Part shown: piece by piece, positions 8,814 through 31,805 of the stretch | Layout of the letters: every line of letters starts with the position of its first letter | Position numbering within the stretch: the stretch's first letter is position 1 | From: Candidatus Woesearchaeota archaeon | GTDB taxonomy: Archaea; Nanobdellota; Nanobdellia; Woesearchaeales; JAGVYU01 | Direction: 5' to 3' | DNA: 64,000 nt | Assembly: GCA_043805595.1 (NCBI GenBank) | Contig: JAZDHV010000006.1 | Location: 11,724 to 75,723 of the forward strand | Translations under genes and position numbers: made by a program | The notes under the pieces: model-generated | The model's database searches: none | Told to the model about the DNA's origin: nothing | Seen by the model: the letters and a program-made list of their open reading frames with translations, nothing else

Positions 8814-9398
8814 TTATTCCTCTATTCTATGTGTAATTTCAAGGTAAGGCCTATTGCCCCCAATCACCCATAATCTCTCACCAGGCATAAACAAGTCCTT
8901 AGAAAGCAAAAGCCTTCTCTGATTATCCATATGGGATTCACCATAAACATATCCTTTGAAATTAACATAATGTTGATTTACATCAGGAAAAACTAGATTT
9001 CTCTTTAAGATCCTATTTTCACCAATGACACATGTCTTGTATTTTCCCTCGGATTCAGGAAATAGATTGTAATAAGACGGAGGTATGCAAATCCTTCTTC
9101 CTTGATCGACTTTAACACCTTTTTTTATAGGATTTGAAAAGAGGATAGCACTTTCAGGATAATCTTGATTAGATCCTTGATAAGGCAACATAGCTAACAA
9201 TTCCCTAAATTCTATCATTGTAATAGGATCTAAATTGCAATCCAATCCTCTTCCACTTAATAACAGACCATGATCATGAGGAAGGAGCCCTTTTTCAACT
9301 GCTTCAACCACTAATTCAGGTGTAATTGAAAAATAATCAGCTAAATCATCTAGATCAAACATAATACCAAGTCTTCTTGCTGTACTCTTTGTTGTCAT
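8814..9398 (-). CDS. Hypothetical protein
   Basis: Start taken at internal Met (MTTKSTARRL) to avoid overlap with the 3' end of the giant gene; no recognised domain. Confidence 0.4.
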   Translation of the reverse strand: MTTKSTARRLGIMFDLDDLADYFSITPELVVEAVEKGLLPHDHGLLLSGRGLDCNLDPITMIEFRELLAMLPYQGSNQDYPESAILFSNPIKKGVKVDQGRRICIPPSYYNLFPESEGKYKTCVIGENRILKRNLVFPDVNQHYVNFKGYVYGESHMDNQRRLLLSKDLFMPGERLWVIGGNRPYLEITHRIEE

Positions 9399-9447
9399 GA
9401 TAAATCGAAGTATAAATTGATTTAAAAATGTTACGGTTAAGTAGTAA

Positions 9448-12400
9448 CTATTTCTTAGAATTCTTATCTTTTTTAGAAGATTTATTATCTTTTTCTTTTT
9501 CCTTTTTATTATTATTCTCATCCAAAAAATCAAGGATCTTGTCATTATATTTTACAAACAATATGATGATAAAAACAATGACTAAGCCTGCAATAATATA
9601 ATTGAGATAATCAATGAAAAAAGAGGCTGGTTTGCTTATAATCAAACTGGCACTTTCCTTAATCTTGCCTAAAAAATCATTCAAATCCTCTTTAATTTTC
9701 TCTGAAATAGGAACATCAGGAGCTTTCTTTACAATAAGGAGCACTTCATTGCTCTCAACAACACCTCCCTTGCCATCATCAGCTGTAAATACCACTGTTT
9801 CAGCACCACTAAATCCTGGGTCATGGATTAACTTAGCTATACCAAGTTCATTGTCAATATCAATATTTATATGATCTGTAGACTCAGCTGAATAAACAAG
9901 CTTATCACCATCAGGATCAATGAAATATTGAGAAAGATCTAAGGATCTATTCTCATCAAAATTCCAGACCTGGATGGGAATACCTTTTTCATCAATAATA
10001 GTCTTATTAACAGATAAAATCCTGATCAGATTGTTCAATTCATTGACAGACAGTCGTGTCTTAACAATAATATCAACCATATTCTTTATCAACAAATCAG
10101 CGAACTCATCGTTAGAAAGGATTGCGTTGGATTCAGTGTTGACAACCTTGCCTTCAGCATTATACTTATAACGGCCATCTGATATTGAGCTGAGGATCTC
10201 ATCAGTCCTAAACTCCTCAATTGTTGTAGTGGGTTTCTCAGGTATTGTGACCAATGTTGTTACAATCATCGTTGTTGATGTTATCTCAGCTGAACTCAAT
10301 GCTGTCTCTGCAGTTGGAGTAATCAAAGAAGAGATTGTGTCATAATTATAATAAACCAAGCTGACAATAACAGCTATTATCACTAAAATAAGCAGATATA
10401 TTGGCCATTGGAGATCATCCTCCTTTTTAGGCTTTTTCTCCCTGATTATCTTTTCTTTTGGTTTTTCAGTTATCTTTTTTGGAGCAACAATGACTGTCTT
10501 TTCAACAGGCTTTTCTATTTTTTTTAATTCAATAATAGGCTTTTTCTCCAAAATAACAGGTTTCTCCCTCATCAGACCAGCAATTGCATAATAGCTAAAA
10601 TCAGGAAGTTTTGTCTCAAAATAAAGGAATGAATCATCCTCATCAATGATCTTAGTAGAAATATCAATCCATTGGCGCTTTTCATACCTCTTTATAATAA
10701 TTGATTTTGGATCAATATCTTGATACACAATCCATGATTTCTTAACCCTGAACCTCAGAAGGACATTTGAAAGGTTGTTTTCACTTATATTTTTTGCATC
10801 TATCTCAAAATACCTATAAACATGAGGGGAAGGCCTGATGAAAGTAGGCTTTTTTTTCAAACCTTTGATAGAGATTGATGCATTGCTAATCCTGCTCCTG
10901 ATCCTAAATGATATCTCACCAATACCAATCTTCTCATTCACTGGGATTGTGACATCATCACCAACTGAATATGTTGAGAGTGATTTTTCAAAATAATATG
11001 CACTACTCCTCCTTTTAACATATGAGCGTATAATAATCAAAATAATGACAATTAAAATGCCAATAATAATGTAAGTGAGATTATTCATCAAAAAAAGCAA
11101 GATAAAATTTATTATGCTCCATGCACCAAAAAAGATTGATTTAACAATTCCATATAAAAAACTTAGAATGTTGAGTATTCCAATCTTCTTATGGATATAA
11201 TAAATCAAGGCAATCAATATTGCAAGAAGCACAAGCAAAAACAATAAGGCAGGCCAGATTTTTGGCTCAACAATCTCAGGACCTATCTGCATCTTTTCAT
11301 CTTTTTTTACCTGCTTTTCAACCAGTTTTTTAGGTTCAATATTTTGACCTTTCTTTATTTCCGCTTTTATTGTCTCATCTTTCCTGATCTCATCTTTTTT
11401 TTCTGGTATTACTGGCTTTTCTTTTTTTGGCCACTTTGAAATAAAAGATATTACCTTAATCAGAATTATCAAAAGAACCAGGACAATGATTCCAGCAATG
11501 ATATAGGGGAAATAATCATTAATCATGGTTCTAACAGGTGTTATCACATTGTTGAGTGAGCCTGATAATGTCTGCAAAAATCCTATATTTTCTCCAGATA
11601 AAGTTGTTGATGTTGTTAAAGGCCCACTAGTAGTTGTGACATCTACTAATGATGATGTTGTAGTCTCAATCAAAGTGGTTGTTGTTTCAGCCAAAGTTGT
11701 TGTCTCTACAATCTCTATTGCAGTGGTTGCTGTAACATTTTCATAAGGCAAGAATGGCAACATATTCATGTAATAAAAAGCAGTGACAATTATTGCAATC
11801 AAGATAATCAAGAATACAGGCCAAACAGGAGGTCTTTTCTTTTCCTCTTTTGTATCCTTTAACACTAATTTTTTAACAGGCCCTGCCTTGGCTCTCTTTA
11901 ATGGCTTTTTCTCAACATTTTTTATCAATTCTTTTCTCTTTTTCTCTTGTTCTATTCTCTTTTTCTCCTTTTCTAATCTTTTCTTTTCCCTATTCTTTTT
12001 ATTGAGCTCTTTTTTCCTTGCCCTTTTCACTCTCCATTTGCTGTATCTAACTCTTATTTTTCCAGATGTTTTCCTTGAGAATCTAAGAAGTGGTCTTCTA
12101 AAAATTAGAATTATGATGATTAGTAACAATAAGGTAATTCCTGCCAAGAAAAACCATTTATACAATAAGACAAAATTATAAGCTGATTTAAAGTATCCAA
12201 AAATAGTATCCTTTAATGTACCTATAACACCCTTAATTTTCTCATACAATATCCCAATCTTGGATGTGAGAGGGGGTTCAATTGCAGCCACTTCTGTCGT
12301 TGTCACTTCCTCTACTGTTGCAGCAGTTGTCTCATTTACTGGAACAAACAAAGACTTGAAAAAAGGCGCGATAGGATAAGCCAGAAAGACATAGATCAGG

Positions 12401-14145
12401 ACTGCAGCCACAATCGCAATAACAATAACCAAAATGATATGCCAGATCTCAACCTTGTACTTTTTTCTTGCAACCTCTTCTTTTATAATTTTTTCAGGCT
12501 CTTTTTTAACATCTTTTTTTGGCTCTTTCTTGACCTCTTTTTTGATAACAGACTTTACTTTTTTTACTTTCTCCATTATTTGAGCCTTTTCTGCAATCTT
12601 CTTCAATTTACTCTTTTTAACAATATCCTTTGACAAGGAAAGTATAATCAGGACAACAATCAAAATTATCAAGGCAATAATAAGATAAATCCAGAATATA
12701 GATATAAAGTCAATGATTGCATTTGACTTCTTAAGACTGATTATAAAAGGCTGGACATAAACAATATTGTTGCTGGATTTAACATTTAATTTGACCAGAT
12801 AATTTCCAGGAGGGGTATTTTCAGAAGGTTTTGTCATAATGCTAAAGGATGTTGATTCTGAAGGAGCTAAGGCAACAAATTTCTGCTGTGATGAAATCCA
12901 AGGCTGATCTGTCTCAAGAGACAGTTCATAATCAGCTAATTTATTCCCTGAATTCCTGATAGGAATTGAAGTAATGGATTCAGAATAGCTTACTTTTATC
13001 CTCTTTGATCCCCTGCCAATCTTTGGAATAAAACAATTCTCAATATTGAGAGGAAGAGACAAAGATTTGCTGATCTTCCCTATATCAGATTTGATATCAA
13101 TTGAATAAGTCCTTGAATATTCATCTCCAACAGGAGGCTTGACATTTAGGTATACTAATTGTGACTTGCCTGAACCAATTGAAACCTTATTTGTATCAAG
13201 AGATAAGATATCATCAATTGGAGAAATTTCAATCTCATATGAATTCTCAATCGGACCAGGATTATCAATCTTGACAGGGATTTTTACAGGCAAGGACTCG
13301 CAAATATCATAATCATAACTGATTTCCTTAAAATCATTATTTGATGCTTGAGATTGAGCAGATAAAACTTCACCAAGCTTAACATCATAATCATAACAAT
13401 TGTCCACCTGAAGATCCAGAGGAAATTTTGTAAGGAATTTAGATTGTGTAGCAAGAACTGATGCTTCAATTGAATAATTCCCAACATCTTCACAAGAAGG
13501 ATCAATACTTAAGGTAGTGATCTTACCAGCACCTGGATCAATAATAAGAGGGTTTTGGTCAGTTGCAGAGGCATCATTGAATGAATTGATATAAACCTTA
13601 TATTCTTCCTTGAAAAAGCCAACATTATTGATTTGGATCTCATATTCTGCCTTGTCACAACCGCAGATCTTCTGCGAATTTGTCAAAGGAATAACTTCCA
13701 AGTTCTGGCAATTCTGGATTATTACATTCTGATTTAACTCCTTGACCTCACCAGATGATGATATTATCTGGATTTTATGGCCATATGAGCCTTTATCATA
13801 GAAGCAGGGAACCTTAATATGCTGATATAAATCAATTGACTCTCCAGAATCTAATTTAAAGATATAAGGGGCAATTGTAACCCACTTTGAGATCTCATTA
13901 TTATATATATTTACTTCATAACTTCGAGAATAAATATCATTATTTTCCACTATTATAGTGTTTATTGACTCAATACAAGAGCATGTCCGAATTTCAGCAT
14001 CTGTATATGCATTCATCCTGTTTGTTGCATAAACATCAGAGGTTAAGCTAATCAAAAGAATTATTGACAATAAAAGTATAAGTGTTAAAGTATATTTTAT
14101 GGATTTATTCATATAATACCAACCATTTATGTAATAATCCCCCAA
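9448..14145 (-). CDS. Giant (1565 aa) multi-pass surface protein with alternating Thr-rich, TM and Lys/Glu-rich segments
   Basis: N-terminal signal/TM; at least 8-10 strongly hydrophobic TM helices interleaved with KKE-rich stretches and Thr-rich linkers (TATTAIEIVETTTLAETTTT); C-terminal basic tail. Confidence 0.65.
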   Translation of the reverse strand: MGDYYINGWYYMNKSIKYTLTLILLLSIILLISLTSDVYATNRMNAYTDAEIRTCSCIESINTIIVENNDIYSRSYEVNIYNNEISKWVTIAPYIFKLDSGESIDLYQHIKVPCFYDKGSYGHKIQIISSSGEVKELNQNVIIQNCQNLEVIPLTNSQKICGCDKAEYEIQINNVGFFKEEYKVYINSFNDASATDQNPLIIDPGAGKITTLSIDPSCEDVGNYSIEASVLATQSKFLTKFPLDLQVDNCYDYDVKLGEVLSAQSQASNNDFKEISYDYDICESLPVKIPVKIDNPGPIENSYEIEISPIDDILSLDTNKVSIGSGKSQLVYLNVKPPVGDEYSRTYSIDIKSDIGKISKSLSLPLNIENCFIPKIGRGSKRIKVSYSESITSIPIRNSGNKLADYELSLETDQPWISSQQKFVALAPSESTSFSIMTKPSENTPPGNYLVKLNVKSSNNIVYVQPFIISLKKSNAIIDFISIFWIYLIIALIILIVVLIILSLSKDIVKKSKLKKIAEKAQIMEKVKKVKSVIKKEVKKEPKKDVKKEPEKIIKEEVARKKYKVEIWHIILVIVIAIVAAVLIYVFLAYPIAPFFKSLFVPVNETTAATVEEVTTTEVAAIEPPLTSKIGILYEKIKGVIGTLKDTIFGYFKSAYNFVLLYKWFFLAGITLLLLIIIILIFRRPLLRFSRKTSGKIRVRYSKWRVKRARKKELNKKNREKKRLEKEKKRIEQEKKRKELIKNVEKKPLKRAKAGPVKKLVLKDTKEEKKRPPVWPVFLIILIAIIVTAFYYMNMLPFLPYENVTATTAIEIVETTTLAETTTTLIETTTSSLVDVTTTSGPLTTSTTLSGENIGFLQTLSGSLNNVITPVRTMINDYFPYIIAGIIVLVLLIILIKVISFISKWPKKEKPVIPEKKDEIRKDETIKAEIKKGQNIEPKKLVEKQVKKDEKMQIGPEIVEPKIWPALLFLLVLLAILIALIYYIHKKIGILNILSFLYGIVKSIFFGAWSIINFILLFLMNNLTYIIIGILIVIILIIIRSYVKRRSSAYYFEKSLSTYSVGDDVTIPVNEKIGIGEISFRIRSRISNASISIKGLKKKPTFIRPSPHVYRYFEIDAKNISENNLSNVLLRFRVKKSWIVYQDIDPKSIIIKRYEKRQWIDISTKIIDEDDSFLYFETKLPDFSYYAIAGLMREKPVILEKKPIIELKKIEKPVEKTVIVAPKKITEKPKEKIIREKKPKKEDDLQWPIYLLILVIIAVIVSLVYYNYDTISSLITPTAETALSSAEITSTTMIVTTLVTIPEKPTTTIEEFRTDEILSSISDGRYKYNAEGKVVNTESNAILSNDEFADLLIKNMVDIIVKTRLSVNELNNLIRILSVNKTIIDEKGIPIQVWNFDENRSLDLSQYFIDPDGDKLVYSAESTDHINIDIDNELGIAKLIHDPGFSGAETVVFTADDGKGGVVESNEVLLIVKKAPDVPISEKIKEDLNDFLGKIKESASLIISKPASFFIDYLNYIIAGLVIVFIIILFVKYNDKILDFLDENNNKKEKEKDNKSSKKDKNSKK

Positions 14146-14356: not shown

Positions 14357-14396
14357 TAAAATAAAAAAAAATTAAAATTTTTGTGTTGTTCGGAAC
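14357..14396 (-). terminator. Hairpin GTTGTTC-G-GAACAAC followed by T-run (on - strand) immediately downstream of S-layer-like gene
   Basis: Perfect 7-bp stem at 14382-14396 next to stop at 14402; T-rich stretch follows on coding strand. Confidence 0.4.
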
Positions 14397-14401
14397 AACA
14401 A

Positions 14402-15715
14402 TTAATAATAAGTTTGTGTCCCTTCTGCGTCCTCGTCTTCATCGCCTTTTAATTTGTTAAATCCAATTATCAGGCCAAGAATGACTAAAAGGACGACTAA
14501 AACAACCAAACCAATCTCCAAGCCTCTCTTAAGGCTTGATCCAGCAACACCACTAGCTGATGTTCCAGCAACATTTGCTGTAAGTGGAATCTGTTTTAAA
14601 ACACTGTCTCCTGAACTTACAGATAGGCTGAATCCATACTGACCAGCTGGCACGCCCTGCTTTGCTGACAAGAACACTAAAACTGAATCAGCATCACCAG
14701 CATTTACCAATATTGTGTTACTTGGCTGGATTGAAGCATCTAACTGGTTTCCACCATTAACAGATACTGTGTAAGCTCTTGTTGAAGAACCTGCATTAGT
14801 AATTGTCACCTGGTAAGCACCTGCTCCTTCTCCAGTAGATACATCCTGAACCTTGATTATTGTTGAAGGTCCAGCTTCTGGTTGTGTAGTTGGAACTACA
14901 GTATCAAGCTCACAAGCTTCATTTGGAATAACCTCGATTGTCCTTGTTGTTGAAGCAACCTCGTCACCATCATCATAGGTAACATCGATCTGTACTGTGT
15001 AATCTCCTGCTTCAGCACAATCAGGAATCCTCATGTAAAGCTCTTCACTTGTTGTTTGATCATCATCTTCACCCTCAGGCTCAAGCTCATCAATGTAGTC
15101 AGCAGCTGAAATTCCTAATTCTGGTATAGATACTTCAACTTTAACGCCGTCTTCATTTCTGTCTCCATTATTTTCAACCCTAACAGTTGTCAATAGAGCT
15201 CTTCCAGCCTTTATCTTTCCAGCAGGTGAAAAGATAACATCGTCAATATCAATTAAATGTTCTGGGGTTTCAACTAAGATTGCATAATATCTCATTATTG
15301 AAATATCCCTTGTGGTTCCATGAATAGTTAATATTATATCATAAATCCCTGGTTCCATTCTTTTTGTCAATCTTAGATCAAGTCTCTCAATGTATCTTCC
15401 TCCGACAGTCAAATCAAAAACTTCTGATTCAGCTGCAATCACATCATCTCTAGAATCACCTTTAATCTCAACTTCAATTTCGACATATCTATCTGTTGAC
15501 TCATTTGCATTAAATGTTATTTTCAATGGTAATGTTTCTCCTCTATCAAGAACTGCAAAGGAACCAGTTAGTGGATCTGGATCTCCTTCTGGTAGCTCGA
15601 TATTGTCGAGATAAACTGTTATTGAACTCTCGTCTATCTGTGCACTTGCAATTGTTGTAAGTGCCAAGACACTTATCAGAAACATTAACAACATTCCGAA
15701 TATTTTACTTTTCAT
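14402..15715 (-). CDS. S-layer-like secreted surface protein with C-terminal TM anchor and acidic tail
   Basis: 437 aa; N-terminal signal peptide MKSKIFGMLLMFLISVLALTTIASA; C-terminal GLEIGLVVLVVLLVILGLIIGF followed by DEDEDAEG; Thr/Ser/Gly/Asp-rich beta-like composition. Confidence 0.55.
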   Translation of the reverse strand: MKSKIFGMLLMFLISVLALTTIASAQIDESSITVYLDNIELPEGDPDPLTGSFAVLDRGETLPLKITFNANESTDRYVEIEVEIKGDSRDDVIAAESEVFDLTVGGRYIERLDLRLTKRMEPGIYDIILTIHGTTRDISIMRYYAILVETPEHLIDIDDVIFSPAGKIKAGRALLTTVRVENNGDRNEDGVKVEVSIPELGISAADYIDELEPEGEDDDQTTSEELYMRIPDCAEAGDYTVQIDVTYDDGDEVASTTRTIEVIPNEACELDTVVPTTQPEAGPSTIIKVQDVSTGEGAGAYQVTITNAGSSTRAYTVSVNGGNQLDASIQPSNTILVNAGDADSVLVFLSAKQGVPAGQYGFSLSVSSGDSVLKQIPLTANVAGTSASGVAGSSLKRGLEIGLVVLVVLLVILGLIIGFNKLKGDEDEDAEGTQTYY

Positions 15716-15947: not shown

Positions 15948-18900
15948 TTAATATATTTCTAATTCTCTATGACGGACTCTCCTCAAGTCATCACTTTTTG
16001 TTGAAGCTATAGAAACCCTCACGTCATAAATTCCTGGATCTGCCCAGTCTGGAATCTCTAAGTCAGCAAGTTTCGTCACTGTTGTCTTTGCATCAATACC
16101 AAAAGGACCTAACTTTCTTCTAACTCCAAGTTCAGGAATTGTGTATGTGACTGTAATCTCTTTTATATCATAATAGTCGTTGTTAGTCATTGTAATTACT
16201 GCCTGAACACTGCTTCCTGCCTCAAACTTATCTGAGTATGTTCCGTCGAAACTAATCCTGTCAATAAACAGCTTTCTACGAGGAGATGAAATCGGATCTG
16301 GTATAACTACGTCAATAATAAAATCCTGCAAGTCTGTCAAAAATCCGTCGGAAACCATGATTATCACATGATTTTCACCAGCCTGATCCTCATCTGGATC
16401 CCATTGTATCAATCCAGTAACTGGATCAATTGTCATGTCAGCCGGCCATGTTATTAGTGAATATACAAGAGGATCATTGTCAGGATCTGACGCATCTGAA
16501 TCATACTCATATCTCTCAACAAAATCCATTGGATCATTAATCTCTAAATAAGTTACAGGTGCTGATGTGAAATAAGGCGCATGATTAATCAATGGATCAA
16601 ACAAAACATTTACAACAAATGTATCCTCTGTAAATAATCCATCCGGATCCTCTGCCCTCACAACAGCTGTGCATGAACCGATAAAAGATAAGTCTGGAAC
16701 TATGTCAACATCATCATTGGAGCCAATTGATATTCCACATTGATTGTTGTTTGAAACAGACATCAAGGTGTATGTTAATTCTGAATCTGAATTATCTGGA
16801 TCGTCGGTATAATCATTCAGATTGAAAACATTATCATTCACAGAGTCTTCAAATACATCCTCATCAGGCAATCCGCTTATAACTGGTCCATCATTAATCT
16901 CATCATCGTCAAAATAATCAGTGCAACCTAGGTCATCAGGAAAATCTGTATATGTGTCAAAATCGTTGTCTACAGAATCAGAACACTCAGTATAATCACA
17001 ACCTAAACTATCATCACAAATAAAATAACAATAATCAGTGCCTGTATCAACATCTAAATCACAATAACTATGCTCAGTACCAGCATTCTCACAAATCGGA
17101 GTGTGAGTAGTGGTAACAAAATCAAGACCACCACAAGCAGACTCATCATAAGGAGAACCACAATCAAGATCAGCATAACACAAAACAGGACCATCTGATT
17201 CGTCATCGTCAAAATAATCAGTGCAACCTAGGTCATCAGGAAAATCTGTATATGTGTCAAAATCGTTGTCTACAGAATCAGAACACTCAGTATAATCACA
17301 ACCTAAACTATCATCACAAATAAAACTACAATAATCAGTGCCTGTATCAACATCCTCATCACAATAACTATGCTCAGTACCAGCATTCTCACAAATCGGA
17401 GTGTGAGTAGTGGTAACAAAATCAAGACCACCACAAGCAGACTCATCATAAGGAGAACCACAATCAAGATCAGCATCACAAACAACAACACCATCAGACT
17501 CATCATCATCAAGATATGAATCACAACCAAAATCAGCTGGATAATCTATATCACCATCACCATCATTATCAACACCATCATTACATTCATAAAATTGCCT
17601 TACAACAGTCAAAGTAACAACATTACTGTCTGCTGTCCCACCATTGCCATCATTTGCAGTAAATGTTACAGTCTCAACACCAAAATAACTAGATGGCTGA
17701 GTAAAACTGACAATATGGGAAGTTGGATTGATTGAAACGACAATATTAGGATTGTCTAAAGCAGATGCTGCATATGACAGAGCATCTCCATCTGGATCAG
17801 AAAAATAGTTGTCTAGGTCAAAAGCATTCAAATTTGATGTCCCTTGGTTCCATGTCTCATCAGAAATTGGGTTTACAATTGGATCAAAATTAGGCGGATC
17901 ATTTATAGGTGTAACAGTTACTCTGAAAGTGTCTTCAGAATATAATCCATCTGGATCTGTAACTCGAACAACAGCGTCACAAACACCATTAAAATCTAAT
18001 GCTGGAGCAATGTCAATATTGTCTGAACCATCAATGCTTATTCCACATTGATTGCTGTTTGAAACTGATGTAAGAGAATATATCAATTGTGAATCTGTAT
18101 TATCTGGATCACTAGCAAAATCATTCAAGTTAAAAGCATTAGGCTTTGTTGTGTCTTCTGCAAGAGTCTGATCAGGCAATGAACCAATCACAGGAGCATC
18201 ATTAACAGGAGTGACAGTAACCCTGAAAGTATCTGTATCAAAAGCTCCCAAAGGATCTTCAACCCTAACAGTAACATCACAAATTCCATAAAAATTAAAA
18301 TCAGGATTTATGTCAATATTGTCGCTTCCATCAATAGTAACTCCACATTGATTTCCATTAGTAATAGATGTCAATGAGTAAGCCAATAAAGAGTCAGCAT
18401 GATCTGGATCACCTGCATAATCATTCAAGTTAAATGCGTTATTAATTGATGCATCCTCTGCTAATGTTTGATCAGGCAATCCGCTTATTGTTGGTGCGTC
18501 ATTGACTGGTGTGACAGTAACTGAGATTGAATCAGTATCAGTCAATCCACCTGTATCTTGAACTGTGAATGTGACTATGCCTGTTGAACCACTATATCCC
18601 GGAGCAGGTGTAAAAGTCACAATATGAGTTGTTGGATTGATTGAAACACCAACATTAGGCAATTGATTAGATGTCCATGACAGATCTCCATCAAGGTCTT
18701 CCTCATCCTGGACATAATCATCCAAGTCAAGACTGTTATGGATTGTGTCTTCTGGGAATGAAACATCAGGAATATTAGTTATGATTGGAGGTGTGTTTGC
18801 CTTGTGCATAGCTCTTGAGACAGTCAGGTCTGTATTAGAAATATCAAACTCTCCTTCAATTGGAAGATATAATGGATTTGTAACATCATATGTATAGTGG

Positions 18901-20201
18901 CCGTTTACATAACCGCCGATAACAGCAACGCCATTTGAATTGGTTGTTGCAGTCTGACCATTTGATGAAACAGTTGCGCCCTGGATTCTTGCAGCAGTTG
19001 TATCATCTGAAATTATGAAAGTAACCTCATAGACTGGAGCTGGAGCAACATAAATCTCTTCCTGAGCTGTCTCAGTTGGATTAGGTTTTCCGTCACAAAG
19101 CGGTGAGTCAGCAGTTCCTGCCACTTCCATTGTAAAAACATCCTCATATGGAGCAACCCATTGGAATGAATGTGCTGTCGGATCAACTTCATTCGGATTA
19201 GCTGGAAGTGAAGCTGAACCAGATAAAATAACCTGATGAGCTGAATTTCTCACTTCATAATCAATATCTGTAGGAACAGATGTCAAAGCATGCTGTGGAT
19301 CAGCATAATTGCTGATCTTATTATACTCAACTGTTACAGTGTCTCCTGCAACTGGATAAGGATCAGTTGTCCTCAATCCATTGATGATTGTGTAACATTC
19401 ATTTGTAGGCCTTCCTGGAAGCACACCAAAATATTTACTTGATGACAATGGAATATTTGAGGAACATTGGTTGTCAGTAACAACAGTCCTTACTGTTGCC
19501 TCATATTGTCCGTCTTCAGCAGGAACCCATGAATATTCAACATTTTTCACCTCATCCATAAAGATTGGGTCACCATGTGCAGCATCAAAATAAGTCATCT
19601 GCTGGTTAACAATCTGGCCATCTTTTTTGATTGTCAAAGATACAGTAGTGTCTGCAGAATAATAGATATCCCTGTATGCTGGAGGGATATATCCAACATT
19701 ATTATGAGCATCCTGGAAAGCTGAATGAGTTACTGCATCTAATGAAGCAGAAACATTAACCTGCAAAGGCTCATTAGCATAAAGATCATTTGTGACTGTG
19801 AATTCATCAATTGTAGAAGCGCAATTTGCAACTCTGTCAAAATTAATATCAACACTTCCTGAAGCATGTCCAGGATTGCAAAAAGTATGGAATGTAGCAA
19901 TGCCTTCAACAGGGATATATCCTGTATCAGCTGGATTTGCTGCTGGAACTATGAAATAACCTGCATAACCAAAAGGGGACAATAAACAAGAGGGGAATGA
20001 GATCAGCATGTGCCCATTAGAGGTTGATCCTGAAAATGAAAATGGAGTTGAGCTAACAGTATCACAGTTAATGTCGAGACAGGTAAAGAACTTTGATTCG
20101 ACATTGTTGACATTAAAGTTAAATGTAATGTCTGCAACTGCAAAGACATTTGCTGCCAGAAGAACAGCTAAAAATGGCATTATAAATAGTATTTTTTTCA
20201 T
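15948..20201 (-). CDS. Giant (1417 aa) secreted adhesin-like protein with cadherin-like (VNDAP) repeats and duplicated Cys/Asp-rich modules
   Basis: Signal peptide MKKILFIMPFLAVLLAANVFA; at least three ~100-aa repeats RVTVTPVNDAPxISGLPDQTLAED; two near-identical Cys-rich modules; no C-terminal anchor. Confidence 0.7.
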   Translation of the reverse strand: MKKILFIMPFLAVLLAANVFAVADITFNFNVNNVESKFFTCLDINCDTVSSTPFSFSGSTSNGHMLISFPSCLLSPFGYAGYFIVPAANPADTGYIPVEGIATFHTFCNPGHASGSVDINFDRVANCASTIDEFTVTNDLYANEPLQVNVSASLDAVTHSAFQDAHNNVGYIPPAYRDIYYSADTTVSLTIKKDGQIVNQQMTYFDAAHGDPIFMDEVKNVEYSWVPAEDGQYEATVRTVVTDNQCSSNIPLSSSKYFGVLPGRPTNECYTIINGLRTTDPYPVAGDTVTVEYNKISNYADPQHALTSVPTDIDYEVRNSAHQVILSGSASLPANPNEVDPTAHSFQWVAPYEDVFTMEVAGTADSPLCDGKPNPTETAQEEIYVAPAPVYEVTFIISDDTTAARIQGATVSSNGQTATTNSNGVAVIGGYVNGHYTYDVTNPLYLPIEGEFDISNTDLTVSRAMHKANTPPIITNIPDVSFPEDTIHNSLDLDDYVQDEEDLDGDLSWTSNQLPNVGVSINPTTHIVTFTPAPGYSGSTGIVTFTVQDTGGLTDTDSISVTVTPVNDAPTISGLPDQTLAEDASINNAFNLNDYAGDPDHADSLLAYSLTSITNGNQCGVTIDGSDNIDINPDFNFYGICDVTVRVEDPLGAFDTDTFRVTVTPVNDAPVIGSLPDQTLAEDTTKPNAFNLNDFASDPDNTDSQLIYSLTSVSNSNQCGISIDGSDNIDIAPALDFNGVCDAVVRVTDPDGLYSEDTFRVTVTPINDPPNFDPIVNPISDETWNQGTSNLNAFDLDNYFSDPDGDALSYAASALDNPNIVVSINPTSHIVSFTQPSSYFGVETVTFTANDGNGGTADSNVVTLTVVRQFYECNDGVDNDGDGDIDYPADFGCDSYLDDDESDGVVVCDADLDCGSPYDESACGGLDFVTTTHTPICENAGTEHSYCDEDVDTGTDYCSFICDDSLGCDYTECSDSVDNDFDTYTDFPDDLGCTDYFDDDESDGPVLCYADLDCGSPYDESACGGLDFVTTTHTPICENAGTEHSYCDLDVDTGTDYCYFICDDSLGCDYTECSDSVDNDFDTYTDFPDDLGCTDYFDDDEINDGPVISGLPDEDVFEDSVNDNVFNLNDYTDDPDNSDSELTYTLMSVSNNNQCGISIGSNDDVDIVPDLSFIGSCTAVVRAEDPDGLFTEDTFVVNVLFDPLINHAPYFTSAPVTYLEINDPMDFVERYEYDSDASDPDNDPLVYSLITWPADMTIDPVTGLIQWDPDEDQAGENHVIIMVSDGFLTDLQDFIIDVVIPDPISSPRRKLFIDRISFDGTYSDKFEAGSSVQAVITMTNNDYYDIKEITVTYTIPELGVRRKLGPFGIDAKTTVTKLADLEIPDWADPGIYDVRVSIASTKSDDLRRVRHRELEIY
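16903..17502. repeat. Near-perfect 300-bp tandem duplication inside adhesin gene
   Basis: Seen directly: 16903-17202 vs 17203-17502, only a few mismatches; encodes duplicated Cys-rich module DCGSPYDESACGGLDFVTTTHTPICENAGTEHSYCD... Confidence 0.85.
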
Positions 20202-20283: not shown

Positions 20284-21789
20284 TTAAGGACCTGGATTTA
20301 GAGCTCCTCCCCCAGTAAAACCTCCACCACTCAAAACCCCTCCATTACCTGTTGGTCCAAAAGCATTGAAAAAGCTACCAGTTCCTCCTAATTGAGGAAT
20401 GCCGCCAGGTGAAGGTGGCAATTGAGGACACCATGGAATAAGACTATTACTACCATTTGGAACCATAATAGGAATAATATATATCTGCTGTTCAGGTTCA
20501 GGTGGAGTGTATAATGCTTTTTCAGCAGCTGCACCTACACCTTGAGAAGCAATGTCTATACCATAATCAATCAGTTTATTTGGACCTTTTACACCAGGTG
20601 CAAATAATGAAAATCCAAATAAACCACCTTGACGGTAAGAAGCAACATTCAAAACAAGAGGATCTTCTGTTAATTCAGACCTGTTGGATCTGCAGAGCAA
20701 TAGTATATCATTGCCATTAGAATCTACAAAAGGAACTAAATAATTAGCATTTGCTGCATTATCAGATCCAAATGCTCTCCAGAAAATCTGCTCATTAGTC
20801 AATGAACCAATATTTTGGCCAAGATCAACTTCATAAACAAAATTAACATCATCTCTCCTGTCTCTAAACAGATTAAGCAATCCTTTTGTGAGTTCTTTTG
20901 CAACATAACCACCTGCTCCAACTTCCGGCTGACCTAATGAAGCAGATGTTCTATAAGCTGCCAATCCAGCACCCATAAATTTCTCAAGTAAATTCCTGAC
21001 ATAAACTGTCTCATGCTCAAGATCAGGTCCATTATTACAGAAAACAAAAGAGATTTCTGGAATATCATTTGCCCTTATTCTCTTATCATAAAAATTAGTT
21101 GTCCTTGCATAAACCTGAGGGAATACCTTATTAATCTCTCCATCAGGATTGAATCTGCTGTAAAAAATCAGGAAATCCTTAAATCCTCCTGTAATGTCAG
21201 GATCGCTTACATACAATCCAGAAACCTGCATTTCTCCCTGAGGCAAGAAGTGTCTTGCAAACTGAGTAATATTAAATACTCCTTCTTGTGTTGAGCCAAT
21301 CCCATTCAAATAATTTTCACCAAATCTTAATAATTCAGAGTTTCCTGGTATTGAAGATTTTCTTGATGTGATCAAATTAACATCTACAGGAACAACATAA
21401 GATGTTCCATCAGATGGAATATGATCTTTAAGACCAGGATTGGGATCAATTCCAGTACCATTAATCAATGCACTTATCTGGCCTTGTTTTTTTGCTCTTT
21501 GAGCCATTTCTGTTTGGAGAATTGAATCAAGATCAGCTGGATCAAAAACATCTTCACATTCTGCTTGCGCAGGTTCTGGGGCTTTTTCCCTCACTTCTGG
21601 AAAATTTTCTGGAACTCTTCTTGATTTTGTTGTATGATCAACACCATAATTCTGTGTTGCACATGAAGCAGCTACAGCAACAATTGAAGTACCGATTACA
21701 AAATCTCTTGCTAATGCTTTAGCAGTATCCCATGCATTTGTTAGATATTCCATTGGATTTAAAAGATTGATATTATTCATTTTATTCAC
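20284..21789 (-). CDS. Hypothetical membrane-anchored protein with Gly-rich C-terminus
   Basis: 501 aa; N-terminal hydrophobic anchor FVIGTSIVAVAASCATQ; C-terminal GGIPQLGGTGSFFNAFGPTGNGGVLSGGGFTGGGA; 8-nt overlap with upstream gene. Confidence 0.45.
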   Translation of the reverse strand: MNKMNNINLLNPMEYLTNAWDTAKALARDFVIGTSIVAVAASCATQNYGVDHTTKSRRVPENFPEVREKAPEPAQAECEDVFDPADLDSILQTEMAQRAKKQGQISALINGTGIDPNPGLKDHIPSDGTSYVVPVDVNLITSRKSSIPGNSELLRFGENYLNGIGSTQEGVFNITQFARHFLPQGEMQVSGLYVSDPDITGGFKDFLIFYSRFNPDGEINKVFPQVYARTTNFYDKRIRANDIPEISFVFCNNGPDLEHETVYVRNLLEKFMGAGLAAYRTSASLGQPEVGAGGYVAKELTKGLLNLFRDRRDDVNFVYEVDLGQNIGSLTNEQIFWRAFGSDNAANANYLVPFVDSNGNDILLLCRSNRSELTEDPLVLNVASYRQGGLFGFSLFAPGVKGPNKLIDYGIDIASQGVGAAAEKALYTPPEPEQQIYIIPIMVPNGSNSLIPWCPQLPPSPGGIPQLGGTGSFFNAFGPTGNGGVLSGGGFTGGGALNPGP

Positions 21790-23932
21790 CTCTGCCTCTT
21801 CCTAATCTGCTGAATGGCCCACGAGCAATTGCTGCCAGATTATGGCCTAAATTTTGAATACCATGTTTAACAAATCTAACTGGACCTCTGCTATGGTCTT
21901 CAAAAGTCTCTTCAATTGTCTGCCTATTCCCAATTAAATGAGTTATTATTCCATCTTTATCCCTGTAATCAATCAAAGTCTGATCAACAACAGATAAAAC
22001 TCCAGCTGCCTGATCTAAATATTTACTATCAATAATATTTGAATCAGCTAAATTTGTTAATGCAAGGGCAAATGCCTCTGCAGGAACAGATGGATTTGTT
22101 ACGCTCATTTTTCCAGCAAAATATCCAGTTCCAAAACCAGGTTCAACATCAGGAACATTTTCTGCTCCTTGAGCTAAATTCCCAATATTAGATGTCATAG
22201 CAGAGATTTCATGGCCACTGTTTGTAATTAAATCTAAAACAGTATCACCAGGAGCAACTCCAATGTCATCTCCATAACCAAGTGCTGGAATATCTCGCAT
22301 AAAGTTGAGTCTAACTGTTTGTTTTCCTCTCTTACCTGTATCAACTTGTATTTGAGCAAGGTCTCTTGTACTTGATTCTAATTCATTACCGAGAGAATCC
22401 AATAATTGTAATTGAGTTAATTGATCAGGTGTTGTTTGCAAAGGAACTGGATTTAATTTAGAATCTAAATCTGCATCTTCAGCTTGAAAAGTATTATTTG
22501 CTGTTTGAAGCTCTGCTCTTGATTCTAGTGCTTTAATTGTCTCTTGCCTTGCGGTTCTTAAGCTTGAATATGCGCCTTTTAACTCAGATCCCCTTTTCCC
22601 ATAAGCATCAATTAATGCTGCAAGAGTTTCGTGTCCTGTACCTGCAATTAGAGATTGATTACTATCAATTGTTTGTTGAGCTATTTCTAAATCAGCCCCT
22701 CTTTTACCATAAGCTCCTAATAAAGCTAAAAGATTATTATGACCAGCACCTGCAATTTGTGCATTAATAGCATCAATATCAGATCTTGCTGTTCCTAAAG
22801 CAGCTGAAGTTTCTGAAAGCATAACTTGAGAATCTATTAAATCACCTTGAGCTTGTCCATAAGCTGCTAAAGCTTTGTCTCTTGCTAATGCAGCTGGCCT
22901 AGCTCTTGCATATTCTGTAAGAAAACTTCCAGCCATAATACCTGCAATTGCTGCAACTGCAGTAACTTTTACAACATTTCTTCTACACCAATCTTTTACT
23001 CTTTGATATAAAGAAGAAGGACTTGTAGTAATTTCAGGCAGAGTATCACTAGATGCTGCGACACTGCTTTCAGAAGTATCTGGTCTTTCAGCTGGAGCTG
23101 ATCCATCAGAAGCAGGACTACCATATAAACTTGCACTAACATCACTCTCGCTCAAACCAGGCCTATCACCTGGGGGAGTATCTCCAATCTCAGCTCTTGG
23201 ACCCTCTGGTGTTCGCATTGTAACTTCTGGAGTTCTAACACCACAAGGAAATCTGGAACTTGATAATTTATCAGGAACTCTTCCGCCTGCATAAACTGGA
23301 TGAGCTTCTCCAACAACAGCCTCTAAAGGTACATCTTGAGGTAGTACAACATCATCATCGCCTGGATGATCACCAGGACAACGAATTGTAGATTTACTCA
23401 TACCCCAAGCTTTATGAGCTCTTTGTAATGTTGATTGAGAATCTGAATCAACAACATCATCTATATCAGCTGGAGAAGTTGTATAACCATTAGCAATTTG
23501 CCGAGCTTTTGCCATCTTTGACAGACGAAGCTTGTCATCACTTCTCCTGTAATCAAATCCGTCGAGAACTCCTGAATAAAAAGCCCGTGCAGTTAGATTT
23601 AAGTCTCCTAAAATTGTATCAACAGATTCATCAGAATTTTGATATCTTTGACGAGCATTTGCTATATCATCATCAGATAATTGAGAAACTGATCTTAAAT
23701 GCGAGGAATCTTTTCCCTGATGTCTTGAGACTGTTTTAACAGTGCCATATTTGACACCAAATTGGTCACCAACTGCTTCTCTTCTTTCTTGAAGAGTTAG
23801 TTTTCTTCCATCTTCACTATGAGTTTTTGCTTGAAATGCAGTATAAATTTCATCTGCTTGAGTTGCATTTAAATCCCTGTATGTTGCTCTAGAAGCATAG
23901 TCTGGTTTTTTTTCAATATTTCCTTTAGTCAT
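21782..23932 (-). CDS. Hypothetical single-pass membrane protein with C-terminal coiled-coil repeats
   Basis: 716 aa; central TM VVKVTAVAAIAGIMAGSFL; repeated AGxGHxxLxALxxAYGKRGxxL units; higher GC than surroundings. Confidence 0.45.
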   Translation of the reverse strand: MTKGNIEKKPDYASRATYRDLNATQADEIYTAFQAKTHSEDGRKLTLQERREAVGDQFGVKYGTVKTVSRHQGKDSSHLRSVSQLSDDDIANARQRYQNSDESVDTILGDLNLTARAFYSGVLDGFDYRRSDDKLRLSKMAKARQIANGYTTSPADIDDVVDSDSQSTLQRAHKAWGMSKSTIRCPGDHPGDDDVVLPQDVPLEAVVGEAHPVYAGGRVPDKLSSSRFPCGVRTPEVTMRTPEGPRAEIGDTPPGDRPGLSESDVSASLYGSPASDGSAPAERPDTSESSVAASSDTLPEITTSPSSLYQRVKDWCRRNVVKVTAVAAIAGIMAGSFLTEYARARPAALARDKALAAYGQAQGDLIDSQVMLSETSAALGTARSDIDAINAQIAGAGHNNLLALLGAYGKRGADLEIAQQTIDSNQSLIAGTGHETLAALIDAYGKRGSELKGAYSSLRTARQETIKALESRAELQTANNTFQAEDADLDSKLNPVPLQTTPDQLTQLQLLDSLGNELESSTRDLAQIQVDTGKRGKQTVRLNFMRDIPALGYGDDIGVAPGDTVLDLITNSGHEISAMTSNIGNLAQGAENVPDVEPGFGTGYFAGKMSVTNPSVPAEAFALALTNLADSNIIDSKYLDQAAGVLSVVDQTLIDYRDKDGIITHLIGNRQTIEETFEDHSRGPVRFVKHGIQNLGHNLAAIARGPFSRLGRGRGE

Positions 23933-25331: not shown

Positions 25332-26105
25332 CTAACCTTTTCCCACTAAAGTTTCAAGAGGACTATTTTTTTCGCCGCCTTTGGCGGACTCTCCTAAAAG
25401 TACCCCACGCAAGGCATCATGATCGCTGACATCGCGAAAGTTAGCATTGAAATTGGAATTGTTGACAAAGCCGTTAAGCCTAGACGCCCGCGCAACAATC
25501 TCATCATCCTTAATACTCTCAGCAGCATGATCAGGATTCATTGTGAATACTCTTGTTTCAGAAATTCTACCATTTACTCTTAGATTATCCATAACTCTTT
25601 CAAGCATATAACCAGAACCATAACCAGCACTAACCCAAGGCACCCTAGCAACAGTAACATCCTTATCATACCTACCAGTTCTGACATGAAATGACCTATA
25701 CTCAGCATCACTTCCTTTAAGCCTCAACCCTTTAGGATCAACAAAAACAACATCCCCTGCCTGCTCTAACCTCAAAATAAGATCTTTTTGTCCAGAATTA
25801 AGATGAACATAACCAATACCAGCAAGCTCCTGACACACAGTTGAAGTGCCTTCTCCAAAAACCACATTAAAAGCAGCATTCCCACCAATACCCAACAACA
25901 ATTTTCCATCTCTTTTTGTAGCAAGAGGAGCATTAGCAGTATAAAACCAAACTCTTCTCAATCCTTCACCAGCTATCCTAGCAGCAGACAATTGCGCACC
26001 AGTATTAATAGTAGAAGGAACAAACAACCCATAAATATCTTTTAAAGCTCCTTGCCTAACATTATAAACAAACTGTTGTTCTTGTGCATTATTCATTTTC
26101 CACAC
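25332..26105 (-). CDS. Hypothetical protein (paralog of 26140..27036 in C-terminal region)
   Basis: 257 aa; shares C-terminal VARASRLNGFVNNS...ALRGV segment with neighbour; unusually GC-rich codons. Confidence 0.5.
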   Translation of the reverse strand: MWKMNNAQEQQFVYNVRQGALKDIYGLFVPSTINTGAQLSAARIAGEGLRRVWFYTANAPLATKRDGKLLLGIGGNAAFNVVFGEGTSTVCQELAGIGYVHLNSGQKDLILRLEQAGDVVFVDPKGLRLKGSDAEYRSFHVRTGRYDKDVTVARVPWVSAGYGSGYMLERVMDNLRVNGRISETRVFTMNPDHAAESIKDDEIVARASRLNGFVNNSNFNANFRDVSDHDALRGVLLGESAKGGEKNSPLETLVGKG

Positions 26106-30711: not shown

Positions 30712-30746
30712 TAATTTTTAAACAAGAACATATTCTTTATTTTCTT

Positions 30747-31412: not shown

Positions 31413-31413
31413 T

Positions 31414-31755: not shown

Positions 31756-31805
31756 GAGATTTCTTAGAATAATTTTATAAAGTTAGATTCAATCCCATTT
31801 TAATT

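Follow-up and report, generated by a model that had tools for sequence, protein, structure and literature searches.

A predicted polytopic envelope protein encoded beside a putative S-layer gene in Woesearchaeota

In the SlaA/SlaB system of the Sulfolobales, SlaB is a membrane-anchored stalk encoded beside the lattice protein, with a single C-terminal TM helix and a coiled-coil. Haloarchaeal S-layer glycoproteins are fixed in the membrane by one lipid or TM anchor and have one Thr cluster; such clusters beside the membrane anchor are O-glycosylated spacers (PMC5744192). A third group to be compared are the PGF-pre-PGF/PGF-CTERM proteins of Euryarchaeota (ArtA substrates, e.g., P0008 type), in which the PGF-pre-PGF domain is canonically extracellular and membrane-proximal. 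S-layer genes are among the top-expressed genes of Woesearchaeota (PMC11606122), and none of the S-layer proteins of DPANN archaea has been determined so far (bioRxiv 10.1101/2023.10.27.564410).

Here we describe a protein from a Candidatus Woesearchaeota archaeon, encoded in a window of 64,000 nucleotides (the whole stretch of DNA analysed), that shares some traits with each of these systems. We propose, with a probability of roughly 0.55, that it is a polytopic envelope glycoprotein and a membrane-integral partner that anchors or organises the putative S-layer protein encoded next to it. The features considered below are as follows (TM positions and sidedness are predicted).

9448..14112, minus strand: whole gene, 1554 aa plus stop, start backed by the L006 orthologue
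14023..14112, minus strand: apparent signal peptide (aa 1-30), h-region LTLILLLSIILLISL, c-region SDVYA/T (slash, predicted cleavage)
12703..14022, minus strand: extracellular N-domain (aa 31-470), from alignment A1, Pfam matches on homologues and profile search
12382..12690, minus strand: hairpin 1, TM1 (aa 475-493, out to in), K-rich loop (494-558, net +14), TM2 (559-577, in to out)
12157..12381, minus strand: extracellular loop (aa 578-652), moderately Thr-rich, with a NET sequon and an amphipathic pre-TM segment (KIGILYEKIKG...)
11770..12156, minus strand: hairpin 2, TM3 (aa 653-671), K/R-rich loop (672-762, net +31), TM4 (763-781)
11503..11769, minus strand: extracellular Thr-rich mucin-like linker (aa 782-870), 34% T+S, NVT sequon, predicted disordered
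11203..11502, minus strand: hairpin 3, TM5 (aa 871-889), K/E-rich loop (890-951, net +5), TM6 (952-970)
11080..11202, minus strand: hydrophobic/amphipathic segment (aa 971-1011), treated as extracellular/interfacial from homology and the L007 orthologue
10408..11079, minus strand: TM7 (aa 1012-1030, out to in) and predicted cytoplasmic loop (1031-1235), from TIGR04213, AF2 and TM parity
10576..10938, minus strand: PGF-pre-PGF domain (aa 1059-1179), TIGR04213
10213..10407, minus strand: TM8 (aa 1236-1254, in to out) and Thr-rich extracellular linker (1255-1300)
9628..10212, minus strand: extracellular C-domain (aa 1301-1495)
9451..9609, minus strand: TM9 (aa 1502-1520, out to in) and cytoplasmic tail, from alignment A3 and the L007 orthologue
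14402..15715, minus strand: S-layer-like gene, 437 aa, with signal peptide, Ig-like domains, C-terminal TM and acidic tail ...NKLKGDEDEDAEGTQTYY
15948..20201: second large gene, adhesin-type with five Big_9 domains, inserted beside this pair
27382..32945, plus strand: N-glycosylation block AglB/STT3, GT2, DUF2304, GT9, a conserved neighbour

In its longest reading the ORF spans 9448..14145 and encodes 1565 aa from a TTG codon, as an earlier note on this DNA had it; the ORF exists, but it lies on the minus strand and the true start is likely the ATG at 14112 (MNKSIKYTL...), giving 1554 aa, because the 89%-identical L006 relative opens with the same nine residues. The exact protein is already in NCBI as 'MAG: PGF-pre-PGF domain-containing protein [Candidatus Woesearchaeota archaeon]'. 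Its length and modularity are out of the ordinary, and an alternative ORF (8814..9545) overlaps the 3' end of the gene, as might be expected if several genes had been fused through a frameshift or misassembly. However, the 89%-identical copy on the contig of an independent MAG is uninterrupted; all five indels that separate the two are in frame and confined to loops (one, a 7-aa repeat unit, falls in the K/R-rich loop of hairpin 2), and purifying selection is seen throughout, with dN/dS of 0.07 in the TMs, ~0.2 in folded domains and ~0.4 in loops (range 0.07–0.41). In addition, an orthologue of lower identity (L007, from a 47%-GC bin) has the same layout, and the architecture agrees across the family. 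The ORF is thus a real gene, as had been claimed, and the probability of an artefact is vanishingly small.

The beta-rich extracellular part of ~450 aa noticed earlier resolves into four tandem ~110-aa Ig-like modules (CARDB/NEW3/FixG_C/HYDIN-type) with conserved CxC...PC...C cysteines. The segment that precedes them had been taken for a signal anchor; it ends in VYA/T and looks instead like a cleavable signal peptide, with AXA-like sites at this position in all homologues. The Ig array is the family-defining region: a profile search with alignment A1 identified 3987 cluster representatives at E<=1e-3, of which 829 reach E<=1e-30, and the protein studied here, itself the seed sequence of this profile, carries the Cys-containing array. 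Hence the search for DPANN homologues suggested in the earlier note recovers a large and widespread family, and the architecture, which the note could not assign to a described family, is no orphan: databases already list family members under the names 'hypothetical protein' or 'PGF-pre-PGF domain-containing protein'; in the literature, we found no paper describing the Ig-array polytopic family. The protein is the most expanded member of this large family in Woesearchaeota/Pacearchaeota-type DPANN archaea, in which divergence is fast, domain content is variable and lengths range from 183 to 1562 aa.

Kyte-Doolittle analysis, on which the TM calls are based exclusively, reveals, besides an N-terminal segment of the signal type, nine windows of 19 residues whose mean hydropathy is 2.4–3.5; when the protein was shuffled 1000 times, hydrophobic windows numbered 0.35 on average and 4 at most. 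The segment at aa 971-1011 is also called a TM by a naive scan; because it is homologous to the extracellular segment preceding TM3 (z = 6.0) and is replaced by a short polar loop in L007, which has an unambiguous 7+1+1 TM layout, we treat it as extracellular or interfacial. With this segment resolved by homology, the protein has an odd number of TMs, nine, and basic inside loops alternate with acidic or glycosylatable outside loops. Lys and Arg make up 30.9% of the inside segments vs 8.1% of the outside segments (Fisher p = 9e-26), Thr 2.2% vs 7.8% (p = 1e-5), and all 10 Cys residues are in outside segments. The AF2 model of the TM region is of low confidence (mean pLDDT 48.8). Across the family, 1, 3, 5, 7 and 9 TMs follow the signal peptide in 36, 30, 48, 13 and 3 proteins, respectively, and an even number in 14; among ~150 representatives, K+R averages 36.6% in odd loops and 8.8% in even loops, with 0.29 and 1.84 sequons per 100 aa, respectively. 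Thus, hydropathy, charge bias and the family-wide alternation of loops agree with the original proposal that the protein very probably crosses the membrane many times, with the long charged loops all on one side, and the best explanation of these sequence signals is a topology with nine predicted TMs, the N-terminus outside and the C-terminus inside.

The TM/K-loop regions of the protein and its relatives give weak Pfam matches to Ctr, cytochrome b561, OATP, ZIP and connexin, which would be compatible with the helices packing into the functional bundle of a transporter or channel. Nevertheless, the last four are below their Pfam cutoffs, the whole-protein score for Ctr (30.1 bits vs the cutoff of 25.3) is just above yet looks compositional, and in this protein no single stretch passes alone; for Ctr, OATP, ZIP and cytochrome b561, this leaves no domain-level match above the Pfam cutoff with a conserved TM core. 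Given also that the TM number in the family varies from 1 to 9, that the helices are almost purely aliphatic and set apart by long loops, and that the modules are duplicated hairpins (see below), we consider such a function highly improbable. The DUF2207 predicted membrane proteins (PF20990) similarly combine an extracellular beta-rich N-domain with TM helices and charged loops; the match (21 bits vs a cutoff of 33) looks compositional, and the protein does not belong to this family.

Sequence alignment shows the TM hairpins to be duplicated internally: modules that share an orientation align at z = 5–9, and cross-orientation controls at z ~0–2. The modular alternation described in the earlier note is therefore present, but this origin had been missed, and of the at least four rounds of helix, KKE stretch, helix and Thr-rich linker, the four K-rich segments stand whereas only three Thr-rich linkers are found, a moderate one (aa 578-652) and two strong ones (aa 782-870 and 1255-1300). 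The L007 orthologue has the same layout of nine TMs, PGF-pre-PGF domain and C-domain, but its loops are short and ordinary and a Thr tract is almost absent; comparison of the two sequences indicates that the skeleton is conserved and that the extreme KKE and Thr tracts on it are low-complexity expansions specific to the lineage. It is conceivable, if doubtful, that the alternation has no specific function and that replication slippage in a 33%-GC genome expands loops that serve only as topogenic (positive-inside) elements or spacers, so that only the Ig array, the TMs and the C-domain matter. Such an origin is compatible with the economy of L007, with the loops having the highest dN/dS and all the indels, including the repeat unit, and with the disorder that AF2 predicts for most of them. 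However, loop dN/dS is still clearly below 1, basic loops of 40–90 aa recur family-wide (median 40 aa), far beyond the needs of topology, and the loop of hairpin 2 contains a confidently predicted long ER/K-type helix (~aa 694-734; pLDDT 68–89, for the helix only).

The fourth of the K-rich segments (aa 1031-1235) had been counted as another KKE stretch, and the folded 120-aa PGF-pre-PGF domain within it was overlooked. In domain scans of the window, which took in ~24 ORFs, TIGR04213 matches aa 1059-1179 with E = 3.6e-26 (92 bits vs a cutoff of 28), i.e., this is a bona fide PGF-pre-PGF domain; AF2 predicts a beta-sandwich (pLDDT 63–86), and the remainder of the loop is a K/P/E-rich disordered linker. 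As in the euryarchaeal proteins, a K/P-rich linker and then a TM helix come after the domain. In contrast to them, it lies between two TMs, with basic residues on its flanks and further extracellular domains after it, and the PGF-CTERM signal is lacking: no NCBIfam match to the PGF-CTERM model was detected in the protein at E<=0.01, and no PGF motif precedes the last TM (...FFIDYLNYIIAG). With the C-terminal PGF motif/TM/basic tail signal absent, the protein does not look like a substrate of archaeosortase A. The domain is found in the same 7+1+1 layout in L007, and the TM count is odd on both sides of it, to the extracellular N-domain and to the C-domain, in 12 of 12 other representatives. 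Because of this parity, the domain is predicted to be cytoplasmic, rather than in the canonical location.

The C-domain combines a small helical subdomain with a cadherin-like/Big_9-type beta-sandwich (LDLSQYFIDPDGDKL...FTADDGKGG), its score for Big_9 (PF17963) being marginal (22.4 vs the gathering threshold of 23.6 bits). The cytoplasmic tail carries the conserved motif KxILDFL(E/D)E and is K-rich at its end.

The gene had been placed upstream of the S-layer-like gene; it is actually directly downstream on the same strand. The same arrangement, typically with a gap of 30–150 nt, is found in 63 of 69 species-level Woesearchaeota/Nanoarchaeota loci, and the pair in the window belongs with them in being immediately adjacent. 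The gap in the window is 290 nt, with a hairpin and T-run after the S-layer-like stop codon, so co-transcription here is not assured. The neighbour is conserved across the loci (~420 aa; orthologues 40–45% identical); its tail ends in YY in 80 of 80 cases and is net acidic in 76 of 80, and the inside segments of the family partners have a median net charge of +21. We infer that it is an S-layer protein from its architecture, the proximity of AglB and a match to NF033506 ('putative S-layer protein'), which at 74 bits is under the cutoff of 110.

Because the gene nearly always adjoins the putative S-layer gene, a role in anchoring or organising the envelope is probable, and the scaffold or tether suggested in the earlier note fits this conserved position, although it stays at the level of a proposal. 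The likeness to SlaA/SlaB lies in the conserved adjacent gene pair, in a membrane-anchored, probably glycosylated partner with many Ig-like/beta-sandwich domains, and in the lattice anchoring and spacing proposed here. PDB sequence searches detected no similarity to SlaA/SlaB, and unlike SlaB the partner is polytopic, with nine predicted TMs and large cytoplasmic elements. Another difference is that the lattice candidate bears its own TM, so a separate anchor is not obviously needed. As in haloarchaeal S-layer glycoproteins, Thr clusters are located just outside membrane helices and AglB N-glycosylation machinery is nearby (PMC5744192); here, however, three Thr-rich linkers, presumably glycosylated, emerge from separate TM hairpins.

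DPANN archaea are typically episymbionts, and the protein might be an adhesin for contact with a host or other cell, the Ig array and cadherin-like domain gripping the partner, the hairpins merely anchoring them, and the S-layer gene being close by as part of a general surface island. The fold of the C-domain, the rapid divergence, variable domain content and wide length range of the family, and the Big_9 adhesin-type gene beside the pair would all suit an adhesin, and the S-layer partnership is further weakened by the uncertain co-transcription. Still, we consider an adhesin unlikely: the same position in 63 of 69 loci is more readily expected of a housekeeping envelope component than of an accessory adhesin, which moreover has no need for up to nine TMs or conserved cytoplasmic elements (the PGF-pre-PGF domain and ILDFLEE tail). 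Compared with cadherin-like/Big_9/dystroglycan-type adhesins, a single such domain, not a tandem array, is present within a polytopic protein.

As a partner of the S-layer, the protein would display outside four Ig-like domains in an array, able to form disulfides, two to three Thr-rich spacer linkers, probably glycosylated, rising straight from the membrane, and one cadherin-like domain. Nine TM helices, i.e., the duplicated two-helix hairpins and a final anchor, would stitch it into the membrane; inside, there would be three Lys/Arg/Glu loops of strongly basic character, one or more of them forming a long ER/K-type helix, the PGF-pre-PGF beta-sandwich with its K/P-rich linker, and the short tail with the conserved ILDFLEE motif. 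The protein could thereby give the surface layer its anchorage, spacing or organisation and link it with the cytoplasmic face. In a physical interaction, the basic loops might act as a multivalent binding surface for the conserved acidic ...YY tails of the S-layer-like protein, or for anionic lipids; since all membrane proteins show a positive-inside bias, the charge complementarity is weak evidence for binding.

AglB is often located near the gene pair. The AglB/STT3-GT2-DUF2304-GT9 block of the window is found also in the L001 and L003 loci, and the order of the S-layer-like and family genes, with this block and a Trp/Tyr permease nearby, is retained in three genomes, among which the large protein, with only ~29% identity, evolves much faster than the S-layer-like protein (41–45%).

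The open reading frame reported in the earlier note at 9448..14145 of the window exists on the minus strand, the plus-strand frame being full of stops. Read from a TTG codon, it encodes 1565 aa, and from the ATG at 14112 (MNKSIKYTL...) 1554 aa; given that the orthologue from locus L006, 89% identical to the window protein, opens with the same residues as the ATG-started product, this ATG is the probable true start. An NCBI record derived from a Candidatus Woesearchaeota MAG matches the protein exactly, and the L006 relative comes from a separate MAG and contig. Codon-level comparison of the two reveals five indels, all in frame, and purifying selection throughout, with dN/dS of 0.07 for the TMs, 0.19–0.29 for folded domains and ~0.4 for the loops rich in K and those rich in T. 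The independent MAG copy, the in-frame indels and dN/dS below 1 therefore refute the scenario in which the ORF is a fusion created by frameshift or assembly error, which the earlier note had raised.

A hydropathy scan detects a signal-type segment at the N-terminus and nine windows of 19 residues whose mean Kyte-Doolittle values are 2.4–3.5, whereas in 1000 shuffles of the same protein such windows number 0.35 on average and at most 4; the 30-mers rich in K/R, and those rich in T, likewise go far beyond the shuffles. The predicted domains and TM segments are arranged as follows.

Predicted features of the 1554-aa protein (window 9448..14112, minus strand), coordinates in amino acids
1–30: signal peptide, with a VYA|T site of putative cleavage
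31–470: four tandem Ig-like modules of ~110 aa each, with conserved CxC...PC...C cysteines (N-domain alignment A1)
475–493: TM1, followed by a K-loop of net charge +14
559–577: TM2, followed by a moderately Thr-rich loop with a NET sequon
653–671: TM3, followed by a K/R-loop of net charge +31
763–781: TM4, followed by a Thr-rich linker (34% T+S)
871–889: TM5, followed by a K/E-loop of net charge +5
952–970: TM6, followed by a hydrophobic/amphipathic segment (971–1011)
1012–1030: TM7, followed by a 205-aa basic loop (1031–1235)
1236–1254: TM8, followed by a Thr-rich linker and then a C-domain of ~195 aa
1502–1520: TM9, followed by a K-rich tail

The segments assigned to one side of the membrane contain 30.9% K+R vs 8.1% on the other side (p = 9e-26), the Thr bias is reversed (2.2% on the K/R-rich side vs 7.8%), and all ten cysteines are on the low-K side. 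By these compositions, the alternation of Thr-rich, TM and Lys-Glu-rich stretches described in the earlier note is real; what that description missed is a genuine PGF-pre-PGF domain (TIGR04213, aa 1059–1179, 92 bits with a cutoff of 28) inside the 205-aa loop, the fourth of the basic loops. In the AF2 model of aa 1005–1554 (mean pLDDT 64), this domain is a beta-sandwich (pLDDT 63–86), the C-domain consists of a small helical subdomain and a beta-sandwich (pLDDT 80–91), and the K/P and Thr linkers C-terminal to the PGF-pre-PGF domain are disordered. The model of the TM region is of low confidence (mean pLDDT 48.8) and does not resolve the helix packing or segment 971–1011; its Thr linkers are disordered, and its one confident long helix is an ER/K-like stretch at ~aa 694–734 (pLDDT 68–89). 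Searches of PDB sequences gave no matches, and Foldseek against PDB found nothing at E<=1e-3. The Ig-like modules of homologues match generic Ig-type Pfam models, namely HYDIN/VesB-like Ig, FixG_C and NPCBM_assoc. The Pfam matches that might suggest a transporter look compositional and were rejected.

The signal peptide, cysteines and sequons indicate that the N-domain is extracellular, and the same is indicated for the C-domain by its cadherin-like character and the sequon- or Thr-rich linkers that precede it. A naive threshold calls residues 989–1007 a tenth helix, which would break parity. This call was set aside on three grounds: segment 972–1035 aligns with the extracellular pre-TM3 segment and TM3 (KIGIL...; z = 6.0, a score reached by 0/2000 shuffles); the more distant orthologue from locus L007, with the same overall layout, has a short polar loop in place of the 971–1011 segment and an unambiguous order of 7 TMs, PGF-pre-PGF, 1 TM, C-domain and 1 TM; and in all 12 other representatives carrying PGF-pre-PGF, the TMs that precede this domain are odd in number, as are those that separate it from the C-domain. 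With the N- and C-domains outside and the TM counts odd, the PGF-pre-PGF domain is predicted, from hydropathy, the positive-inside rule and parity, to be on the cytoplasmic side. In every member, K/R runs border the domain on either side.

The PGF-pre-PGF domain is named for preceding the PGF-CTERM surface-anchor signal, and in a canonical surface protein of this type (P0008) it is the last extracellular domain. The predicted cytoplasmic location is thus unexpected and contrary to what the name implies. Two readings that invoke proteolysis were considered and rejected. As a signal-peptidase "polyprotein", the product would be expected to carry AXA-type sites, which the in-to-out TMs lack. A ZU5-like autoproteolytic (HFS) role of the PGF-pre-PGF domain is unsupported: a weak Peptidase_S68 match (E = 0.068) occurs in a single homologue, the invariant Ser is preceded by differing residues (DFS, HLS, GCS, EFS), and in one member this Ser is missing.

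BLASTP self-comparison of the protein found no internal repeats, and a DNA repeat search returned low-complexity matches only. Orientation-specific alignment of the TM modules with their flanks, controlled by shuffling, gave z = 9.1, 8.4 and 6.7 for the in-to-out pairs TM6-TM8, TM4-TM6 and TM4-TM8, and 7.2, 5.3 and 5.1 for the out-to-in pairs TM5-TM9, TM7-TM9 and TM3-TM7, whereas all 20 cross-orientation controls were between -0.05 and 2.8. The in-to-out helices share W(P)xxLxILxxIAxxxxxxxYY, and the out-to-in helices an amphipathic lead-in with Y(I/L)xYIIAG. This orientation-specific similarity shows that the protein grew by duplication of a two-helix unit, the loops diverging later, so that the repeated modules noticed earlier are duplicated TM hairpins (z of 5–9 within an orientation), a point that had escaped notice.

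Of the unusual Lys-Glu/Thr architecture, it is the skeleton of Ig array, nine TMs, PGF-pre-PGF and C-domain that is conserved, and not the extreme composition: the L007 loops are short and mixed (R/K/A/E), with hardly any Thr tract (L007 comes from a bin labelled 47% GC vs 33–36% in the window). The indels between the window protein and its L006 relative fall in loops and include a 7-residue unit, IEQEKKG, the extra copy of which in L006 lies within the ER/K-like helix of the second K-loop (window 11950–11990, minus strand), which suggests that the loops grow by heptad-sized slippage. Given the absence of this composition from L007 and the loop indels, part of the striking pattern is low-complexity expansion, albeit under some constraint (dN/dS ~0.4).

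The protein belongs, by profile similarity, to a large, undescribed family. The N-domain profile matches 3987 representatives of 50%-identity clusters at E<=1e-3, of which 1792 remain at E<=1e-10 and 829 at E<=1e-30. Source names are restricted to 'hypothetical protein', 'uncharacterized membrane protein' and 'PGF-pre-PGF domain-containing protein', from Woesearchaeota, Pacearchaeota and Nanoarchaeia; cluster look-ups gave only the first two kinds of name, and a word-indexed homologue search with the profile 5 matches without informative names. Literature searches on PGF-pre-PGF, PACE-CTERM and Woesearchaeota/Pacearchaeota S-layers yielded no description of the family, nor of the polytopic hairpin architecture, a cytoplasmic PGF-pre-PGF or the pairing with an acidic YY tail; the earlier impression that the architecture is not a described family thus holds for the literature searched, but the protein is not an orphan.

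Of the best 150 representatives, 36 have 1 TM following the signal peptide, 30 have 3, 48 have 5, 13 have 7 and 3 have 9; the count is even in only 14, in several of these simply because the final anchor is missing. K+R makes up on average 36.6% of odd loops and 8.8% of even loops, and sequons number 0.29 and 1.84 per 100 aa, respectively. The cadherin-like C-domain is found in ~65 and PGF-pre-PGF in ~14 of these 150. The cytoplasmic tail motif (K/R)x(I/M)LxFLEED recurs among close relatives and is rare in a wider set (4/52 with a loose pattern). The modular addition of TM hairpins, from 1 to 9 TMs, is, like the predicted cytoplasmic PGF-pre-PGF, unusual for archaeal surface proteins, and the family offers a natural series in which to follow the evolution of polytopic topology through duplication of hairpins.

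The strongest functional clue is the genomic context. Directly upstream of the gene in the window, on the same strand, is that of a 437-aa S-layer-like protein (14402..15715, minus strand). This protein has Ig-like domains of the FixG_C and NPCBM_assoc types in addition to a signal peptide, a TM at the C-terminus and an acidic tail, and gives a sub-threshold match to the NCBIfam 'putative S-layer protein' model NF033506; the N-domain of the polytopic protein is itself weakly similar to it (E ~1e-4). The same gene order is present on the contigs of two 29%-identical homologues (P0003 and P0004), where GT9/DUF2304/GT2/AglB is followed by the S-layer-like protein and the family member, with a Trp/Tyr permease nearby; S-layer-like orthologues are 40–45% identical. 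The S-layer-like alignment, which is more conserved than that of the N-domain, was used to scan one genome per GTDB species. It returned 80 loci, most from records titled Woesearchaeota, Nanoarchaeota or Nanoarchaeia and including the complete genome GW2011_AR15. About two dozen are TPA metagenome bins titled 'uncultured Methanosarcinales archaeon' (among them L008, L009, L016, L023 and L024), one is titled Saccharibacteria and a few 'archaeon'. The Methanosarcinales- and Saccharibacteria-titled bins contain the pair, with S-layer-like proteins 33–58% identical to that of the window, and these titles are probably taxonomic mislabels.

Of the 69 loci whose downstream sequence extends for at least 2.5 kb, 63 have a next same-strand gene that matches the N-domain profile, usually after a gap of 30–150 nt. 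The median partner length is 740 aa, usually with a signal peptide plus 3 or 5 TMs; the largest, at 1554–1562 aa, are the protein of the window and its close relative. All 80 S-layer-like tails contain NKL(K/R)G, an acidic run and YY-COOH, in fuller form GLIIGFNKL(K/R)G, acidic run and (T/S)YY at the very C-terminus (window 14402–14470, minus strand); 76 of the 80 are net acidic, and the inside segments of the partners have a median net charge of +21. The conserved tail looks like a recognition or sorting motif, and a related NCBIfam model is named 'PACE-CTERM-PROT'.

The best-supported reading is that the protein is a polytopic envelope glycoprotein partnering the putative S-layer protein. 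We infer that, on the outer side, the Ig array and the cadherin-like domain could pack alongside or underneath the Ig domains of the S-layer-like protein, the Thr-rich linkers acting as glycosylated spacers from the membrane, as described for haloarchaeal S-layer glycoproteins (PMC5744192); inside, the basic loops, which are multivalent, would be binding surfaces together with the PGF-pre-PGF sandwich and the ILDFLEE tail, the acidic ...YY tails of the S-layer-like protein being a candidate ligand. Counter-points are that the S-layer-like protein has its own anchor and that, in the window, the two genes are parted by a 290-nt gap (vs 30–150 nt in most other species) and, just past the S-layer-like stop codon, by the inverted repeat TTGTTGTTCCGAACAACA with a long T-run (14375–14401, minus strand), resembling a terminator. 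Fast evolution and the variable length of the partner, as in adhesins, would also fit an adhesin-like role. Solid as the structural and genomic facts are, the function is putative.

As a polytopic S-layer partner, the protein would work most like a membrane-anchored one (SlaB-like logic) but, with no hits in the PDB sequence searches, is not a member of the SlaB class; its parts are known from archaeal surface proteins, but it lacks the PGF-CTERM signal and is not a member of that class either. What sets it apart are the polytopic hairpins, the predicted cytoplasmic PGF-pre-PGF and its conserved pairing with an S-layer-like protein that has an acidic YY tail. The 2023 Nanobdella aerobiophila preprint (10.1101/2023.10.27.564410) states that the S-layer protein of no DPANN archaeon has been determined by experiment, and the literature searched contained no experimental data on the Woesearchaeota/Pacearchaeota envelope. 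S-layer genes are reported to be among the top-expressed genes of Woesearchaeota (PMC11606122); those genes could not be linked to this locus. The near-universal two-gene locus by N-glycosylation genes, encoding the S-layer-like protein with its acidic ...YY tail and the polytopic Ig-array partner, provides concrete, testable candidates for building and anchoring the coat of these ultrasmall, probably symbiotic cells.

No tRNA or Rfam features were found in the window. A 243-aa ORF (8814–9545, minus strand), probably starting at an internal ATG, overlaps the 3' end of the polytopic protein gene by 98 nt, has no Pfam match and no conserved counterpart downstream of the gene pair at loci L001 or L003. 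The genes at 15948–23932 and 25332–27036 (both minus strand), absent from these two syntenic loci, may be a foreign insertion in the S-layer/AglB island. They comprise a 1417-aa adhesin-type protein (15948..20201; five Big_9, tandem-95, cadherin-like), two Ala/Gly/Pro/Arg-rich ORFs of richer GC (0.37–0.39; 20284..21789 and 21782..23932) and a paralogous-looking pair sharing the motifs VARASRL.F and ALRGV (25332..26105 and 26140..27036), the latter four without Pfam matches. In AglB/STT3, the first TM is preceded by an N-terminal extension of ~170 aa with abundant K, E and D (27382–27900, plus strand), whereas in L001 and L003 AglB is instead fused to rotamase/FKBP domains.
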